Source: Escherichia phage vB_EcoM-101112UKE3-1. Taken from it: 64,000 bases of DNA. The notes beneath the pieces were generated by a model. That model did not search any database and was not told where the DNA came from. It saw nothing but the letters and a program-made list of their open reading frames with translations. The stretch is taken from sequence record MZ234013.1. One strand, given 5' to 3'. A program made the translations under genes and the position numbers. Of this stretch, positions 3,026-32,125 are shown piece after piece; positions within the stretch are counted from its first letter, which is position 1, and each line of letters begins with the position of its first letter.

Positions 3026-5083
3026 ATGGAACTTATTACAGAATTATTTGACGGCGCTTCGGCGCCGGTTGTTAACTTAAATCCTAAGCATAAAATACCA
3101 CAAATTTTTGCTATTCAAGCCGGCGAAGAAAGCGTGCTTCCTGGATTTAGATTTTGTACATACACCTCTGGTGGTGATACGAATAAAAACGTTAAGCCAG
3201 GCGATAAAATGATGCATATCGTAATGATAGGTGTTAATGAGAAACTATCATTAGTTAAGCTTAAAAACTTGGGTGGAAATCCAATTGGTGTCATTAATGC
3301 CGTTTTTGATACTGCTCTTCAAACAATGAAACAGTATAAAATCGACGCATGCCTATTCCGCGTACTAAAAAGTAAAACAAATGGCGCAGCTCGTCAAATG
3401 CAAGTTATTGCTGACCGTTTAGTACGTACTAAAGGAGCAGGTCGATATGTTCTTTTAAAGGAAATCTGGGACTATGATAAGAAATATGCATATATTATGG
3501 TTTACCGTAAAAATGCCAATTTAGAAGACATTCCAGGTGTACCTCCTATTTCAACTGAGTTATTCACAAAAGTTGAATCAAAGGTCGGTGATGTTTATGT
3601 AGACGTTAAAACAGGAAATGCTGTTCCTAAAGCTGTCGCTGTTGCTGCTTCTATTGCTTTAGAAAATGATAAGCGCACGGACCAAGCTGTTATTCAGAAA
3701 ACTAAAATCAGTCGTCGATTAGCAGCACAAGCTCAATATTCTACTGTTGATGCTTCACTTCAGGGTGATAGCTTTGCTGCCAAGAAATATCAAGAGTTTG
3801 AATCTAAAGTTCCGGTATATAAAGCAGAAGGTCCGATGAACTCTGGCGTTATCCAGATTGGTTCAAACTTCAGCAAAGGAGCTATCGGTGGTATGAGAAG
3901 TGCTTCTCGTTTTAAATCTAACGATTATGAACTAGAAAGCTTCCGAAATCATATTGCATTGGCCCATGCACGTTTACGTGATCCATCTATCAAGTTGCAG
4001 AGCGATATAACATATCAAGGTTCTCAAGAATATTTAAAGAATAAAGAATTCTTTGATTATAAAACTGATAAAATTTTAAGCGATCTTGCTGACATTAATA
4101 TTTCTAATAGCTTTGATGTTATTAAGAAAATTATCAATGATTTGGTTAAAGGTTCTAAAGCCACGCCAGATGAAAAGACAGCTATTATTCAATTTGTAAT
4201 GAATGGCATTTATAAATTGATTAATGAATCTGCTGCCCAGGCATATGAATACGCAAGCACCGAAGTAGCTCCAAAAGGACTGACTCAGGCTGAATCTGAT
4301 GTAATTGAAGATTATTGTGCAGATTCATATGTTGAAATGAACTCGTTCCTTTTGGGTAAACCAGATTCTACCCGTGAAGAATACATGGAACGAGCTATTA
4401 AGCACATCGAGACGTTAGATTCTGCCTTTGCCAAAGGATCAGTTCTTCCTCCAGGAACTACACTTTACCGTGGGCAAGAAGTTACCTTTAAAACTTTGCG
4501 TCATAACATTGAAAATAAAATGTTCTATTTCAAGAACTTCGTATCCACATCGCTTAAACCAAATATCTTCGGTGAGCATGGTAAAAACTATATGGCTCTA
4601 GATGATTCTGGCGCAGTATTTTCTGGCGAAGGAGAAGGTTCCGTTGATACAGAAGATTTGATGCATATGGGTAGTCATTCTACATATGCTAATGAAGATG
4701 CTGAAACTAGCGTGGGTATGGTAATTAAAGGAGCTGAGCGAATCAAAGTTATCGTTCCAGGTCATTTATCAGGATTTCCATCAGAAGCTGAAGTTATTCT
4801 ACCACGTGGAATTTTACTGAAGATTAATAAAGTAAGTACGTACTTTATGAAAGAAACTGCTTATAACAAGTATCTAATCGAAGGTACAATCGTTCCTCCT
4901 TCTGAACAATTAGAAGAATCAGTATATGATGGAGACCATCTAATGGAAACTGGTGAAGTTCGTCCAATGGCTGGATTTAATCAATTCCTTGTAGAAGAAT
5001 CAAAAGAAGAGGAAAATGAAGTTTCTCAAATCTTGGCTTCTTTGGTTAACATCAACGGAATGTCTAAAAAGTTCAAAATGTAG
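3026..5083 (+). CDS. Alt-family ADP-ribosyltransferase paralog, copy 2
   Basis: 685 aa; same N-terminal leader (MELITELFDG...NLNPKHKIPQIF); conserved LYRGQ, FVSTSL, EAEVILPRG; central region diverged from copy 1. Confidence 0.8.
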   Translation: MELITELFDGASAPVVNLNPKHKIPQIFAIQAGEESVLPGFRFCTYTSGGDTNKNVKPGDKMMHIVMIGVNEKLSLVKLKNLGGNPIGVINAVFDTALQTMKQYKIDACLFRVLKSKTNGAARQMQVIADRLVRTKGAGRYVLLKEIWDYDKKYAYIMVYRKNANLEDIPGVPPISTELFTKVESKVGDVYVDVKTGNAVPKAVAVAASIALENDKRTDQAVIQKTKISRRLAAQAQYSTVDASLQGDSFAAKKYQEFESKVPVYKAEGPMNSGVIQIGSNFSKGAIGGMRSASRFKSNDYELESFRNHIALAHARLRDPSIKLQSDITYQGSQEYLKNKEFFDYKTDKILSDLADINISNSFDVIKKIINDLVKGSKATPDEKTAIIQFVMNGIYKLINESAAQAYEYASTEVAPKGLTQAESDVIEDYCADSYVEMNSFLLGKPDSTREEYMERAIKHIETLDSAFAKGSVLPPGTTLYRGQEVTFKTLRHNIENKMFYFKNFVSTSLKPNIFGEHGKNYMALDDSGAVFSGEGEGSVDTEDLMHMGSHSTYANEDAETSVGMVIKGAERIKVIVPGHLSGFPSEAEVILPRGILLKINKVSTYFMKETAYNKYLIEGTIVPPSEQLEESVYDGDHLMETGEVRPMAGFNQFLVEESKEEENEVSQILASLVNINGMSKKFKM

Positions 5084-5112
5084 TTTACAAGTCCCTCGTG
5101 TTGTGTTATAGT
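5083..5112 (+). promoter_or_regulatory. early-type promoter (GTTTAC -35, 18 bp spacer, TGtTATAGT extended -10)
   Basis: Sigma70-like hexamers with T4 early GTTTAC box upstream of ORF 5144. Confidence 0.45.
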
Positions 5113-5143
5113 AGTCTTACTGACATAACATGAGGAACACAAA

Positions 5144-5434
5144 ATGAAATCTTCTTTGCGCTTTTTAGGTCAAGAACTTGTAGTTGAAGGAGTTATTCCT
5201 GCTGATAATGCTTTTAATGAAGCAGTTTACGATGAATTTATCAAAATTTTTGGAACAGATAAAAAGTTCGGAATTTTTCCTTCTGAAAATTTTTCAAAGC
5301 CAGAACAGACTGAAAGTATTTTCCAAGGTGTAGTAACAGGTAAATTTGAGTCAGAAGCTCCGGTAAAAATTGAAGTTTATATTGAAGACAGTTTAGTTGC
5401 TTCAGTTTCTGCTTTCATTTCATTCCGTAAATAA
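5144..5434 (+). CDS. hypothetical protein (96 aa)
   Basis: ORF with AGGA-containing RBS region (catgaggaacacaaaATG); between alt and gene 54. Confidence 0.55.
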   Translation: MKSSLRFLGQELVVEGVIPADNAFNEAVYDEFIKIFGTDKKFGIFPSENFSKPEQTESIFQGVVTGKFESEAPVKIEVYIEDSLVASVSAFISFRK

Positions 5435-5440
5435 AAATAT

Positions 5441-5462
5441 GGGGACCAAAAGGTCCCCATTG
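5441..5462. terminator. bidirectional terminator hairpin (ggggaccaaaaggtcccc) between convergent genes
   Basis: Perfect 7-bp GC stem flanked by A/T runs on both sides; lies between + ORF end and gene 54 end. Confidence 0.6.
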
Positions 5463-6428
5463 TTATATTGCTCCTAATATTTTACTCTGCGAATTGACAA
5501 TTCCTGTCATAGTATTAATATTTGAAATGCTTCCTGTAGTTCCCCCTAATCTACTAAGTCGTGAAAGCGAATTAGATAGTCCAGTAACACCTCCACTATT
5601 TCCGAGAACGCTTTGAATACCATTTATAGTAGCAGATTCAAGCCATTCAAGGGCAGCTTGTCTATCAACTGCTCCAGCCTGCATCACTCTATACGCAAAA
5701 GTAACATCAAATGTAGTTATTTGGTTATCTCCATCATATGATAACTCAGGAGCGCTTACGGACACTGGAATGCATCCAGTGAACATCACCGCAGTATGTG
5801 GTAATCCATTGCGAGAATGAAGATTAACCTGAATATCTGCCTCGACATCTTGCGGCAAAGCACGCAATCCAGTTACTGGGTCTTGAACAGCGTTAACCCA
5901 GTCTTGCATTGCACGATAGTTACAAGCTTCTGAATCCATTCTGAATGAAATAACCAAAGGGTCTAATTCTCTCCCAGTTATACGAATATTAGGAGAATTA
6001 TAGTTCCAGTCAGTTTCATAGGATAATCTATTCTCTGGCATTTTTACAGAGTATATCATCAATCCAGATGAGTTATATGCCACGTTAAAGAAGTCAATTA
6101 AATATGTACCAACTGTAAATGAGCCTAATAAACTTTGAACTGTACGTTGACTCATGGCACCAATAAGATATTTACTAACCCCTGATTTTCTTATCAGTTT
6201 TTGTGTGCCAGCTGTAATTAGCGTAGTAATTCCCTGATTAATATCGCCTTGAGTTAATCCTAACCAATCTGAATTTAGGCCCAAGTTATTATAAGAAAAG
6301 TTGCTAATTGAACTTATCAACGAAGAGCTTTTAGTTGATGGAGTTGTAGCAAAAACACAGCTGAACATATTATTACGTTGGAAATCTGCGTTTATTGCTT
6401 GATTATTAAATTCCTCTAAAGAATACAT
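5463..6428 (-). CDS. 54: baseplate tail tube initiator gp54
   Basis: 321 aa; T4 gene order 54-48-29 and size match. Confidence 0.8.
   Translation of the reverse strand: MYSLEEFNNQAINADFQRNNMFSCVFATTPSTKSSSLISSISNFSYNNLGLNSDWLGLTQGDINQGITTLITAGTQKLIRKSGVSKYLIGAMSQRTVQSLLGSFTVGTYLIDFFNVAYNSSGLMIYSVKMPENRLSYETDWNYNSPNIRITGRELDPLVISFRMDSEACNYRAMQDWVNAVQDPVTGLRALPQDVEADIQVNLHSRNGLPHTAVMFTGCIPVSVSAPELSYDGDNQITTFDVTFAYRVMQAGAVDRQAALEWLESATINGIQSVLGNSGGVTGLSNSLSRLSRLGGTTGSISNINTMTGIVNSQSKILGAI

Positions 6429-24070: not shown

Positions 24071-24071
<1 letters not shown>
23844..24071 (-). CDS. 67: prohead core protein gp67
   Basis: 75 aa with poly-acidic C-terminal tail ([25 protein letters not shown]). 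Confidence 0.75.
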
Positions 24072-25696
<1,625 letters not shown>

Positions 25697-25728
25697 TTAA
25701 GCAGGATGGGGATTTCTCCCCATTCATT

Positions 25729-26220
25729 TTATTCCCAATAATCGAGAGCAAGAGTTACTTCAAAGGTTTGGATTTCATTGTTTGAATCCCAATCTAATTG
25801 AAGCTCACCCACGTTAGTAGGCCACAGACCTTTAATTTCAATTTCTTTTGTTACTGTTTTAGCATCACGAGCATATTGACGAACAATAGCGCTCTTTTTA
25901 TACTCTGCAGGTTTTCCACCAGTAATTTCGTTTCCTTGACCAGCAGCAATGCTTTGCCAATCAACAAACTTCTGGCGAGCATCATGAGCTTCATCGTTCA
26001 TTACTGTAACAGTCCAGTCATCGAATGTACGATCGCCTGCTACGTTAATTTTACGGTTCATAAATCCAACTGGAATTTTTTCTACAATACCAGCTGGTAA
26101 AGCAGTGGCTTTACATTGGAATGTAAAATTTTGTCCAAGATAAGAAATTTCTACTTGGAATAAGTTAGGTCGAGCAAAATCACCAGATTCAAACGCTCGT
26201 GTTACATCATCTACAAACAT
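25729..26220 (-). CDS. 19: tail tube protein gp19
   Basis: 163 aa as T4 gp19; synteny. Confidence 0.85.
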   Translation of the reverse strand: MFVDDVTRAFESGDFARPNLFQVEISYLGQNFTFQCKATALPAGIVEKIPVGFMNRKINVAGDRTFDDWTVTVMNDEAHDARQKFVDWQSIAAGQGNEITGGKPAEYKKSAIVRQYARDAKTVTKEIEIKGLWPTNVGELQLDWDSNNEIQTFEVTLALDYWE

Positions 26221-26234
26221 ATTAGCCTCTGTAG

Positions 26235-26242
26235 TATTTATA
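26235..26242 (-). promoter_or_regulatory. late promoter TATAAATA for gene 19
   Basis: Reverse complement of tatttata about 15 bp upstream of gene 19 start. Confidence 0.5.
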
Positions 26243-26327
26243 TCCCTATGTTTAACCTAGGGCATATAGAATTAAAGAATTAAGGATATAGTGTATTTAT
26301 ATGGCCTGCCGAAACAGGCCTTTAGAA

Positions 26328-26885
26328 TCATTCTAGTAAATCCCAAAGATCTACGCTATTTCTTTTTGACTTTTCTCGATTAGATTCCCAAGTGATTATT
26401 TCTAAATTTTTTACGCTTGCTATAATTTCCGGCGGAATTAAATTATCAAATCCATATTTGATAGATACTTTATGATCAAGTTGGTAAGCACCTTCTACGC
26501 CGCACACTCCTATTTTATCAGCATTCGGCCATTTTGACCAAATTTTTCTTATTTTAGCTGACTTAGTTATAGAATGAACTCTACTAGCATATAATGCAAA
26601 CTCTTTTCTTTTACCAGTCCATCGAGGATGTTTATCGCCTCTTTGCCATGGTCTGCTTATTCCAGATTGAACTTCCGAATTTTTAATAGCAACTTGTTTA
26701 ATGCTACATTTTCTACATGCATGTGTGGGTGTTCTATTTAAAAGCTGAATGCTTCTACTAAATTTAATACCACACAAATCACATTTAGCGTCAACCATTT
26801 TATTACTATTCTTTGGCATTAATTCTATTGGAACAGATATTGTATCATGGTATGATACTTTATATCCCAGAATTGTCGACCACAT
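26328..26885 (-). CDS. HNH homing endonuclease (free-standing), inserted between genes 18 and 19
   Basis: Cys pairs CDLCG...CRKC (zinc finger-like) and HNH core QLDHKVS...NLEIITWESNREK; first in-frame ATG at 26885 (the open frame runs to 26972 but begins with TTG and overlaps a hairpin). Confidence 0.7.
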   Translation of the reverse strand: MWSTILGYKVSYHDTISVPIELMPKNSNKMVDAKCDLCGIKFSRSIQLLNRTPTHACRKCSIKQVAIKNSEVQSGISRPWQRGDKHPRWTGKRKEFALYASRVHSITKSAKIRKIWSKWPNADKIGVCGVEGAYQLDHKVSIKYGFDNLIPPEIIASVKNLEIITWESNREKSKRNSVDLWDLLE

Positions 26886-26976
26886 TTTTGAATGATTTCT
26901 TGGTTTTATTGTAACAAACTTAGAAATAATCACTTGTTTCCTCGAGAATAGGGGCCGAAGCCCCGCAATCAATCAA

Positions 26977-28956
26977 TTAACCTGCAAGACCAGTTAACTC
27001 ATCGAAATCTGCACCAGTAGCAGTTGCGACGAAATTAAGTTGGATATAATTTATACTACGAGCCGGTTGAATGTAGAATGTTGCAACAAACTCATTTCTA
27101 TCAATTACTGACGGAGTGTTATTTGTTGTATCGCAAACTACACGATATTCATAAATTCCACCGAGAGCTTTAATTCCCTGTAAGTATTGGGCAGTTTCTG
27201 TGCGGAATGATGAACGAGTAAACGCGTTGTTTAATTCGAACAAACGATATTTTGAACTACGTCCGATATTCGTTTTCAACATATTAAACAGACGACGAAC
27301 GTTAATACGATCAAATGGAGAAGGAACAGAAGTAGCTGTTTTATCACCATACAATACGTAACCATCGCCACCTGTACCAGTTACCGGGTTGATAGCTTCT
27401 TGGTATAAACGGTCGCGCTGAGCCTGGCGAGTTTCAATAGCAAGTTTAATAACGTTAAGAATCTGACCACGATTATAACCAGCTGGAGACATCCAAGTCT
27501 GAGATACGTTATCAGTTCTTGCGCATAAACCAGCAATATCAGCTGCTAATGGAACCCAACGATTCACATCATTATATTTGTCATACTGATATTTGTAGTT
27601 ACCATCGATTGCTGCATAGGTTGAACTGATATTAAAGTTATTATCAGTGTATGAACCTGCTGCAGTTCTCCAATTGACTAAGTTATCAACAGCACGAGTT
27701 ACAGGAATTCCAACTACAGTTTCACGCGGAGGAGAGCACAATACTAAGCAATCTTGGCGAGCATCCCCAATTGAAACGACGTGTTTTTGGACAGTAGATG
27801 CTGTTTCTAAAGATTCACCGGCACAAGAACCCGCAATAAACAATTGAACATCAACGGATTCACGGTCAGCAAAGAAGTCCCAAGCTTCCATCAAATCTCC
27901 TGCTGTTACTTCAGCATTTGATGATAATCCACCAGACAGAGTTAAAATTCCAGAGAAGCCTTCTGGCCAGTTTTGTGCAGTTGCAAAAATATATTCTGAA
28001 CCACCTTTTGCGAAAAAGTCATCGATATAGATGTTACTATCGTAAATATCTTTTTCACCACGCTTAGTTGAAAGAACAACGCTTTGAACAATAGCATCAT
28101 TACGACGAACTATAATAGCGTACTGTGAATCAGTTTGTGGTCCATATCCAAACACTGCTTTAGCAGTAGATGCACGAGTACCACCACCTGGATAAATTGG
28201 GAGTAATGCAGAAGCTCCTTTTGCATAGTCAGCTTTAGATACGATTTCAATTTCAATTTTATCGCCCAACTCACCTGGATAAAGAGCTACTACTCCTGGA
28301 ATTCCGTATTTTTCGAGATTTGCTTGAAAGTCAACCGCTGTCATAGCAGCTTCAGCATTTTCAATTTCAGCTAATAAAATACCAGAATCAGTAATAATTT
28401 TTCCAAGAGTTATTACTGCGGCTAAACCAGAGAAAGACGAAGAAATTTCTGCAGTCCAGTTAGAACCTAGTGTTGGATATTCACCGACTTCTTTCGCTTT
28501 AGCGATAATTTTTGCAGTAGGAATATTAATTTTCTTAATTTTTCCATCTGCGTCTACTTCAGTAATTTTACCTTCAGTTTCAATATCATCTGAAACATAT
28601 TTGACCGTGATTTTATCTCCAACCGCATAGTTACTACCTGGGGTAGAAATTGTGTATTCAATATTACCAGCAATCGGAGATGAGTTTTTAGCGGTATCTC
28701 TATCGACAGCGCGCACAACTCGCAAATCATTTCCATATTGTAAGAAATTCATTGCAGACATAAAATAGTCAGCAGTTTCAGCTGTAGGTTGACCAAAAGT
28801 ATTAACTAAATCTACTTCGTTTGTAACCTGTTTAATCTGAAAAGCAGGACCCCACTGGAATTTACCGGCCAAAGCTGCTGTACCAGTAGAGTTATTAACC
28901 ACGGTGCTTTGAACCGTAGTTTCTTTGAGCTCAATGCCCGGAGATAATAAAGTCAT
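26977..28956 (-). CDS. 18: tail sheath protein gp18
   Basis: 659 aa as T4 gp18; synteny. Confidence 0.9.
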   Translation of the reverse strand: MTLLSPGIELKETTVQSTVVNNSTGTAALAGKFQWGPAFQIKQVTNEVDLVNTFGQPTAETADYFMSAMNFLQYGNDLRVVRAVDRDTAKNSSPIAGNIEYTISTPGSNYAVGDKITVKYVSDDIETEGKITEVDADGKIKKINIPTAKIIAKAKEVGEYPTLGSNWTAEISSSFSGLAAVITLGKIITDSGILLAEIENAEAAMTAVDFQANLEKYGIPGVVALYPGELGDKIEIEIVSKADYAKGASALLPIYPGGGTRASTAKAVFGYGPQTDSQYAIIVRRNDAIVQSVVLSTKRGEKDIYDSNIYIDDFFAKGGSEYIFATAQNWPEGFSGILTLSGGLSSNAEVTAGDLMEAWDFFADRESVDVQLFIAGSCAGESLETASTVQKHVVSIGDARQDCLVLCSPPRETVVGIPVTRAVDNLVNWRTAAGSYTDNNFNISSTYAAIDGNYKYQYDKYNDVNRWVPLAADIAGLCARTDNVSQTWMSPAGYNRGQILNVIKLAIETRQAQRDRLYQEAINPVTGTGGDGYVLYGDKTATSVPSPFDRINVRRLFNMLKTNIGRSSKYRLFELNNAFTRSSFRTETAQYLQGIKALGGIYEYRVVCDTTNNTPSVIDRNEFVATFYIQPARSINYIQLNFVATATGADFDELTGLAG

Positions 28957-28984: not shown

Positions 28985-32125
<3,141 letters not shown>

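Follow-up and report, generated by a model that had tools for sequence, protein, structure and literature searches.

A putative free-standing HNH-type homing endonuclease gene inserted downstream of the tail sheath gene in a T6-like Escherichia phage

Introduction

Free-standing HNH homing endonucleases of T-even phages have been known for decades. Among those of phage T4, MobE has been characterised (PMC2790892), and the T4 literature describes seg and mob cassettes without promoters of their own, as well as promoters that reside within the end of the preceding gene (PMC2988022). One unnamed 'other HNH' was counted in T6 by Petrov et al. (2010), which may or may not correspond to the gene considered here, an open reading frame (ORF) located between the tail sheath gene (gene 18) and the tail tube gene (gene 19) of Escherichia phage vB_EcoM-101112UKE3-1. 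The ORF was examined within a stretch of 64,000 nucleotides (nt) from sequence record MZ234013.1, hereafter the window, to which the coordinates below refer unless another locus is named.

A preliminary description of the locus, made from the sequence alone, had proposed a homing-endonuclease insertion between genes 18 and 19, and the comparative and structural evidence presented below supports that proposal. The ORF is probably a free-standing, site-specific homing endonuclease gene of the HNH type, representing an uncharacterised branch of the beta-beta-alpha-metal superfamily.

Results

The ORF is carried on an inserted cassette

The ORF extends from 26328 to 26972 on the minus strand, and comprises 214 amino acids when counted from a TTG codon. 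Its translation includes CDLCG...CRKCS and YQLDHKVSIKYGF...NLEIITWESNREK, hence the Cys pairs and the HNH-like string that had been described for this frame are present in the sequence as claimed. The adjacency of genes 18 and 19 in T4, which the preliminary description had mentioned, was also confirmed, the two genes being separated in T4 by a gap of 116 bp with no ORF inside. Alignment with T4 indicates that the ORF cassette is an insertion between these genes, standing where the T4-type empty site, TAA-TACGGTGC-ATTCTAAAGG, has only the 8 nt TACGGTGC. The left junction is immediately 3' of the gene 18 stop codon, with the T4 flank identical up to the stop, while the right flank matches T4 from ATTCTAAAGGCCTG onward, beginning at the final base of the ORF TGA. 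The cassette has the orientation of its neighbours, and both the resident stem-loop, which is directly 3' of gene 18 in T4 and 3' of the inserted ORF in the window, and the two late-promoter motifs of gene 19 survive intact beside it. The features concerned are as follows.

26329-26976, minus strand: inserted cassette consisting of hairpin, ribosome binding site (RBS) and ORF, 648 nt, from the alignment of the window, T4 and RB9
26303-26320, minus strand: resident stem-loop GGCCUGUUUCGGCAGGCC, identical in T4, RB9 and the window, dG -12.8 kcal/mol
26294-26301 and 26235-26242, minus strand: two resident gene 19 late-promoter motifs TATAAATA, located by pattern search and identical in T4

The site is polymorphic among T-even relatives, a comparison that the preliminary description had put forward, with a precise junction and a cassette of 648 nt in place of an empty site of 8 nt. 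T4 and T2 are empty and T6 is occupied. The empty-site sequence is identical in seven ORF-less Tequatrovirus loci, T2 among them, and is intact in 533 of the 653 phage-collection records that match the T4 empty site, approximately 150 of the 533 being more distant relatives with 60-80% identity. The occupied left junction was observed in 117 of approximately 498 phage-collection records, and the ORF is absent from the gene 18/19 site in roughly three in four close relatives. Variation was also seen in the spacer that separates the stop codon of gene 18 from the hairpin of the cassette (26965-26976), which is TTGATTGATTGC in the window, TTGATTAT in T6 and Ec_YwIITB1, and TTGATAT in RB9; the 4-nt repeat difference in this spacer explains match lengths of 1797 as opposed to 1801 nt.

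The encoded protein

The frame is not a chance ORF, since its product matches phrog_5104 ('unknown function') in PHROGs with an E-value of 2.5e-82, an exhaustive hidden Markov model (HMM) search retrieved a large family (6681 cluster representatives at 50% identity with E<=1e-3, and 1717 with E<=1e-10), and the ratio of non-synonymous to synonymous substitution rates (dN/dS) is low, at 0.11-0.35 over seven pairs (0.11 versus T6, and 0.14-0.35 in comparisons between genera). Every copy that was inspected is intact. The gene is carried by 242 phage records, at least 80% of the protein being covered in 232 of these database copies, and nearly all of the records label it 'hypothetical protein'; a few refer to it as a holin, head morphogenesis protein or type II restriction endonuclease, and a handful of GenBank records call homologues 'HNH endonuclease' or 'homing endonuclease'. 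No paralogue was found in the window, tblastn returned one copy per genome, and no paper specific to this element was found in the literature searched. The coding sequence and its predicted domains are listed below.

26328-26933, minus strand: most likely coding sequence, 201 amino acids, from GTG 26933 to TGA 26328-26330 (homologue alignment, start codons, T6ORF160, dN/dS)
26331-26621, minus strand: predicted C-terminal nuclease domain, amino acids 105-201 (HNH(N) core motif)
26472-26477 (D153-H154), 26406-26408 (N176) and 26379-26381 (N185), minus strand: HNH(N) core residues
26664-26933, minus strand: N-terminal domain, amino acids 1-90, with a CxxC...CxxC module formed by C51, C54, C73 and C76 (alignment; predicted local distance difference test score, pLDDT, 93-96)

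Residues D153, H154, N176 and N185 are the sole invariant columns in 62 diverse relatives. In the AlphaFold model, for which the pLDDT is 90.4 at full length and 90.5 for the C-terminal domain alone (predicted template modelling score, pTM, 0.80), H154 closes the strand 150-154, N176 is positioned just before the strand 177-181 and N185 is within the helix 182-188, a layout that, as modelled, is the beta-beta-alpha-metal arrangement. On the basis of the invariant D-H...N...N residues and the predicted beta-beta-alpha core we regard the C-terminal region as a probable HNH(N) nuclease domain of divergent sequence, for which motif and topology fit, although curated profiles do not, and for which the comparison with solved HNH folds is in agreement but weak. 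The HNH core noted in the preliminary description is supported by the invariant residues and the model, but not by any significant match to a Pfam HNH family. Foldseek searches with the full-length model returned no meaningful matches, because the two-domain model has a pTM of only 0.50, whereas with the isolated C-terminal domain 4h9d, the NmeCas9 HNH domain, ScoMcrA and PtuB ranked first, with E-values that are not significant. Alignment by hhalign to the HNH segment of SpCas9, the sequence of which was entered by hand, placed the DH/N/N residues in register (E 0.17, not significant).

Within the N-terminal module C54 is invariant, and C51 and C73 are at least 90% conserved in the homologue alignment. 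The module resembles, at the sequence level, the treble-clef-like DUF4379 and CapR domains. The DUF4379 profile (PF14311) matches this protein below threshold (E 0.013-0.015, 16 bits versus a Pfam cutoff of 24.5), but DUF4379 treble-clef matches were obtained in 12 of 32 family members (best E 8e-4), the family profile matches the DUF4379-type protein mS66 with E 2.6e-4, and CapR (PF21817) matches one relative with 2.4e-8. Other relatives have NUMOD3 or helix-turn-helix modules in place of the zinc module. A 2025 paper (PMC12350094) describes CapR/DUF4379-like domains as accessory modules, likely to bind DNA, of homing endonucleases in phages. The zinc module of the present protein probably reads the DNA target, as a putative specificity module.

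Homologues, alleles and signs of mobility

At each of the 16 loci inspected, a homologue directly follows the sheath gene. These include T6, RB9 and Ec_YwIITB1 (Tequatrovirus), UP19 and Bp7 (Dhakavirus), RZ (Gaprivervirus), CHI14 (Winklervirus), Klebsiella phage Roth19, Acinetobacter phage AB-Navy, Aeromonas phage AS-zj, Shewanella phage Thanatos-2, two metagenomic contigs, an IMG/VR genome and Sinorhizobium phage phiM7. Since the gene downstream of the phiM7 homologue is not the tube gene, the sheath gene is the common denominator of position. The distant relative P0047 has a different genomic context; this protein, which combines DUF7487 with the nuclease domain described here, is encoded in a phage-like contig of approximately 190 kb, and contigs related to that of P0047 (L026 versus L027) differ by several small genes just 3' of P0047 (downstream of 4867), a further variable site adjoining a member of the family.

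Judged from identity tables alone, divergence of the ORF is incongruent with that of its flanking genes. Identities to the window for gp19 and the ORF product, respectively, are 100% and 51% in RB9, 72% and 67% in UP19, 72% and 36% in CHI14, and 71% and 33% in the locus designated L018. In both Tequatrovirus and Dhakavirus, empty sites coexist with two alleles that differ greatly from each other. Those of Tequatrovirus have a mosaic structure, the first ~25 nt and the last ~225 nt of the ORF being 80-100% identical, whereas the region between them cannot be aligned:

26555-26910, minus strand: central segment, approximately amino acids 8-126, unalignable at the DNA level with the RB9-type allele (sliding identity, alignment)

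The N-terminal half of the protein, including the zinc module, is swapped between these two alleles, which occupy one site.

A variable patch in the 3' end of gene 18

From T4 to phiM7, the C-terminal 36 residues of gp18 (KPARSINYITLNFVAT.TGADFDELIG) show almost no variation. At the DNA level the same end of the gene is variable, as follows.

27028-27060, minus strand: hypervariable, almost purely synonymous patch, codons R-S-I-N-Y-I-Q/T-L-N-F-V, holding TATAAATT (window versus T4, haplotype table)

Three independent within-genus pairs were compared, namely the window versus T4, L018 versus L017/L019, and UP19 versus Bp7. In all three, gene 18 is near-identical for hundreds of bases before dense polymorphism sets in from ~95 nt before the stop; between the window and T4, one 60-nt block of gene 18 has 13 mismatches as against an average of ~2. 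The ratios of synonymous to non-synonymous codons in this polymorphic stretch are 11:1, 14:3 and 20:0 for the three pairs, respectively. L017 and L019, two genomes of one of these genera that both lack the ORF, show no jump in polymorphism in that block when compared with each other. There are at least four patch haplotypes in Tequatrovirus. Such a patch is the expected trace of repeated break repair from diverged templates, or of target-site escape, and suggests that the enzyme acts in or near this stretch.

The patch has one recurrent amino-acid change, at gp18 codon CAA (27037-27039), where Thr is replaced with Gln (I-T-L versus I-Q-L). The Gln variant is common to the window, T6, the ORF-less loci L010 and L016, Gaprivervirus RZ and the Acinetobacter phage, and may be a trace of inter-genus gene conversion alongside the type-Ia allele.

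Two candidate rules relating gene 18 sequence to the ORF were tried and abandoned. The ATA-AAT codons, or TATAAATT, considered as a late promoter or immunity site marking ORF carriers, fail as a rule: the feature is present at six of nine ORF-positive and three of 15 ORF-negative loci, being missing from RZ, CHI14, Bp7 and phiM7 and found without the ORF in T2, L010, L013 and L016. According to the second rule, genomes with the T4-type gene 18 haplotype would never be occupied. Allele A obeys it (best chimeric match 92.3%), but allele B does not, since it accompanies that haplotype in Ec_YwIITB1, sb1 and sb3.

Start codon, hairpin and expression

As the preliminary description had stated, the open frame begins with TTG 26972 and its first ATG is at 26885; however, it had overlooked GTG 26933 and the GAGG sequence that precedes it, and neither of the codons that it named is the likely start. 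Conservation in an alignment of 32 homologues opens exactly at the GTG 26933 residue with (V/M)-I-I-S-K, the codon at this position is GTG in five of nine loci checked and ATG in the others, and the T6 GenBank record annotates T6ORF160, of 201 amino acids, with the same start. On these grounds TTG 26972 and ATG 26885 were dropped as candidates, and GTG 26933 is most likely the true start of the ORF. Two features lie upstream of it.

26940-26943, minus strand: Shine-Dalgarno (SD) sequence GAGG, 6 nt 5' of the GTG, conserved in RB9 and T6
26951-26964, minus strand: cassette-borne stem-loop GGGGCUUCGGCCCC of the C(UUCG)G type, dG -11 kcal/mol, in minimum free energy and centroid folds

The second of these is the GC hairpin GGGGCTTCGGCCCC of the preliminary description, which is indeed present, although displaced by 1-2 nt from the position given there. 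It is 12 nt 3' of the gene 18 stop and 7 nt 5' of the SD. In the centroid fold the SD is unpaired and the hairpin does not pair with the start site, and across nine loci the unpaired probability of the SD region is 0.37-0.67. Sequestration of the RBS by a hairpin, as in I-TevI, mobE and segB, was ruled out, given that the stem-loop stops 7 nt before the SD and in view of those probabilities. A stem-loop is found just 5' of the RBS in six loci, with four different stem sequences, and in RZ and the Acinetobacter phage it contains TATAAATA. Since a GTG with a good SD is positioned downstream of a hairpin that does not pair there, translation needs no unusual mechanism. Thus, of the two modes of expression offered in the preliminary description, hairpin-regulated translation is not required, while transcription by read-through of the gene 18 late message is plausible.

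Intrinsic-terminator prediction called neither the cassette hairpin nor the resident stem-loop, both of which are without a U-tract. From the gene 18 promoter motif (28985-28992) as far as the ORF, a pattern search located no exact copy of TATAAATA, a motif that occurs 26 times in the window versus 10.8 expected; a match in seven of eight positions, TATAAATT, is located inside gene 18 at 27048-27055. A different arrangement was observed at L018 (~2930-2945 of that locus) and at Bp7, designated L024 (~3120-3135), where an ORF of the type-III allele abuts gene 19, and the TATAAATA of gene 19 is inside the 3' end of the ORF. This promoter within the ORF resembles the 'embedded host promoter' of T4 segG and mobB/C, and would penalise deletion of the cassette.

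Neighbouring genes and related loci

The region matches T6-like Tequatrovirus genomes with 98-99% identity (98.9% to VEc20 and 97.7% to T6). The minus-strand late block of the window retains the T4 gene order, 17, 18, ORF, 19, 20, with the following coordinates.

28988-30820, minus strand: gene 17 (ORF list)
26977-28956, minus strand: gene 18, tail sheath, upstream neighbour (ORF list, T4 annotation)
25729-26220, minus strand: gene 19, tail tube, downstream neighbour (ORF list; 100% amino-acid identity with T4 gp19)
24071-25657, minus strand: gene 20 (ORF list)

Over its last 149 amino acids the gene 18 product is 98.7-100% identical to those of T4 and relatives. Gene 19 is followed by a GC stem-loop, GAATGGGGAGAAATCCCCATCC (25704-25725, minus strand), and then by TATAAATA (25674-25681) ahead of gene 20, the order of gene, hairpin and late promoter being repeated along the late block of the window.

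Additional features were observed at related loci. Bp7 has a second annotated HNH endonuclease gene between genes 19 and 20 (3769-4350 and 4408-5630 region of that locus), and its portal gene is annotated as two pieces, gp20' and gp20, which suggests another endonuclease invasion one gene along. In Thanatos-2 (locus L030, 1-1980) the large terminase gene appears as two ORFs, the first of which matches a Tn7 TnsA-like N-terminal nuclease and Terminase_6N, and gene 17 of this phage may hold an inserted element. Finally, records OR584013 ('Pseudomonas phage PsgM02F') and PV654520 ('Pseudomonas phage vB_PSGBLB0006') contain this Tequatrovirus region at 97.5-98% identity, and MG010123 ('Staphylococcus phage SAJK-IND') carries the 51% (RB9-type) allele; the host labels or assemblies of these three records are probably wrong.

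Discussion

The observations are best accommodated by a homing endonuclease whose N-terminal zinc module would recognise the DNA target, and whose C-terminal HNH(N) domain (D153-H154, N176 and N185) would nick or cut it. In a mixed infection the enzyme would break the genome of an ORF-less co-infecting relative in or near the conserved 3' end of gene 18, and recombinational repair templated by the ORF-carrying genome would transfer the cassette, together with part of the adjoining gene 18 sequence, to the cleaved DNA. No consensus promoter is present on the cassette itself, which would be transcribed late by read-through past the UUCG stem-loop. Translation would begin at GTG 26933, served by an ordinary SD, and the cassette hairpin presumably replaces the stem-loop that was displaced from the 3' end of gene 18 mRNA.

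Several observations weigh against this interpretation. For the single protein, Pfam, in which the HNH profiles of interest were PF13395, PF14279, PF01844 and PF13392, returned no HNH family even at E<=1, although the preliminary description had expected a match to either of the last two, and NCBIfam returned no match. Sequence searches of the PDB with the single protein and with 32- and 62-sequence profiles retrieved no HNH chain, only zinc-finger noise and mS66. PF01844 was reached by only three of 62 relatives (best E 0.0024), and PF13395 by one of 32 (E 0.078). In the literature searched there is no cleavage or homing experiment for any member of the family. Moreover, haplotypes of the gene 18 patch are not sorted by ORF status: Ec_YwIITB1 combines allele B with the T4-type patch, while the ORF-less T2 has an RB9-like patch and the ORF-less L010 and L016 a T6-like one. 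The patch is consequently no simple immunity marker. Constant position and purifying selection over deep divergence would also fit a useful resident gene.

That last point leads to an alternative, which we regard as unlikely, in which the protein is a resident accessory nuclease that serves the phage, either in interference competition or as a packaging aid similar to the terminase-associated HNH nickases of HK97-like phages and GVE2; placement within the terminase-sheath-tube-portal block would then be functional. The ORF is two genes away from the large terminase gene, the best structural matches of the model are small phage and bacterial HNH nickases, the GVE2 enzyme included, and the same position is maintained under purifying selection in very distant phages. 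The gene is nonetheless dispensable to T4, to T2 and to some three in four close relatives, which do well without it, its alleles diverge incongruently with the flanking genes, and headful packaging, the mode used by T4-type phages, requires no helper of this kind. One report (PMC11620839) describes a phage endonuclease with a role in the competition of viruses that infect the same cell. Interference competition, though, differs from homing only in the beneficiary, because the mechanism of cutting is the same.

The remaining alternatives deny the protein a nuclease function or the cassette its activity. A relic of an earlier invasion, inactive and neither expressed nor mobile any longer in the present lineage, would be in keeping with the lack of a consensus promoter, with the stable hairpin between gene 18 and the ORF, and with the existence of defunct T4 endonuclease genes (such as mobA and I-TevIII), but seems improbable for an ORF that is full length, with a good RBS and intact catalytic residues, and that belongs to a family with the low dN/dS values given above and with near-complete protein in 232 of 242 copies. 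Least probable of all is a zinc-finger nucleic-acid-binding regulator of late tail genes in which the HNH-like motif is non-catalytic. Only the zinc module has support from sequence profiles, and a precedent exists in I-TevI, an endonuclease with a second role in repression (PMC2988022); yet invariance in 62 diverse relatives is confined to the four catalytic-type residues, the zinc module being exchanged or substituted, and the gene is missing from most close relatives.

Returning to the homing endonuclease interpretation, a bolder version of it can be entertained, although we hold it to be doubtful. An HNH lineage specialised on the ultra-conserved 3' end of the sheath gene may hop between genera and families, from Straboviridae to phiM7, with module-swapped alleles in competition for one site, with repeated cutting driving the formation of at least four purely synonymous haplotypes 45-95 nt before the stop, and with the cassette hairpin taking the place of the displaced stem-loop. 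If true, specialisation on the sheath gene end would amount to a DNA-level arms race recorded within an essential structural gene.

The main value of the element lies in the correction of an annotation, together with a readily testable homing system in T6 versus T2 and T4. With a family of 6681 cluster representatives, a correct label would propagate widely. Because the gene is present in T6 but absent from T2 and T4, homing, marker exclusion near 18/19 and co-conversion are directly accessible to classical T-even crosses, and since many therapeutic Tequatrovirus isolates carry the gene, a predictable recombination hotspot in the tail module is to be expected.

Comparison with known systems

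The kind of element described here is classical, whereas no description exists of this family, of its domain organisation or of its constant linkage to the sheath gene. In common with the T4 MobA-E proteins, it is encoded by a small free-standing gene in a spacer between conserved genes, in the orientation of its neighbours and with a patchy distribution in T-even phages, and has a catalytic motif of the HNH superfamily. Several seg and mob cassettes are, as is the cassette here, promoter-less or promoter-poor (PMC2988022). No sequence kinship with the Mob proteins was detected, the family HMM scoring ~3 bits or less against MobB, MobC and gp49, with no meaningful score against MobA. The domain order also differs: in Mob proteins an HNH domain of the form HHxxP...N...H is N-terminal and the binding region C-terminal, while the ORF protein has the reverse, an N-terminal zinc module followed by a C-terminal D-H...N...N core without cysteine pairs.

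The best structural matches of the model are the small HNH nickases Gme HNH (4h9d), GVE2 HNH (5h0o) and T5 SciA (9qgx), which are helical-plus-beta-beta-alpha domains of ~100 residues. The alignment with the HNH domain of SpCas9 (D839-H840, N854 and N863) pairs the DH/N/N residues at the non-significant E-value of 0.17, and the biological context of that enzyme is wholly different. The stem-loop has a counterpart in seg43(25) of Aeromonas phage 25, where a very stable RNA hairpin is directly 5' of the RBS without sequestering it (PMC2988022); the likeness is confined to the hairpin upstream of the RBS, since seg43(25) is a GIY-YIG seg-type gene at another locus. As to the zinc module, CapR/DUF4379-like repeats have been reported in homing endonucleases of phage group II introns (PMC12350094) and in putative restriction endonucleases of marseilleviruses (PMC5513546). 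There, a similar zinc module of ~60 amino acids is situated N-terminal to the nuclease and has been proposed as the specificity module, but CapR-repeat proteins have three to five copies of it, joined to an EDxHD/Vsr-like or restriction-type nuclease, whereas the ORF protein has a single copy and a predicted domain of the HNH type.

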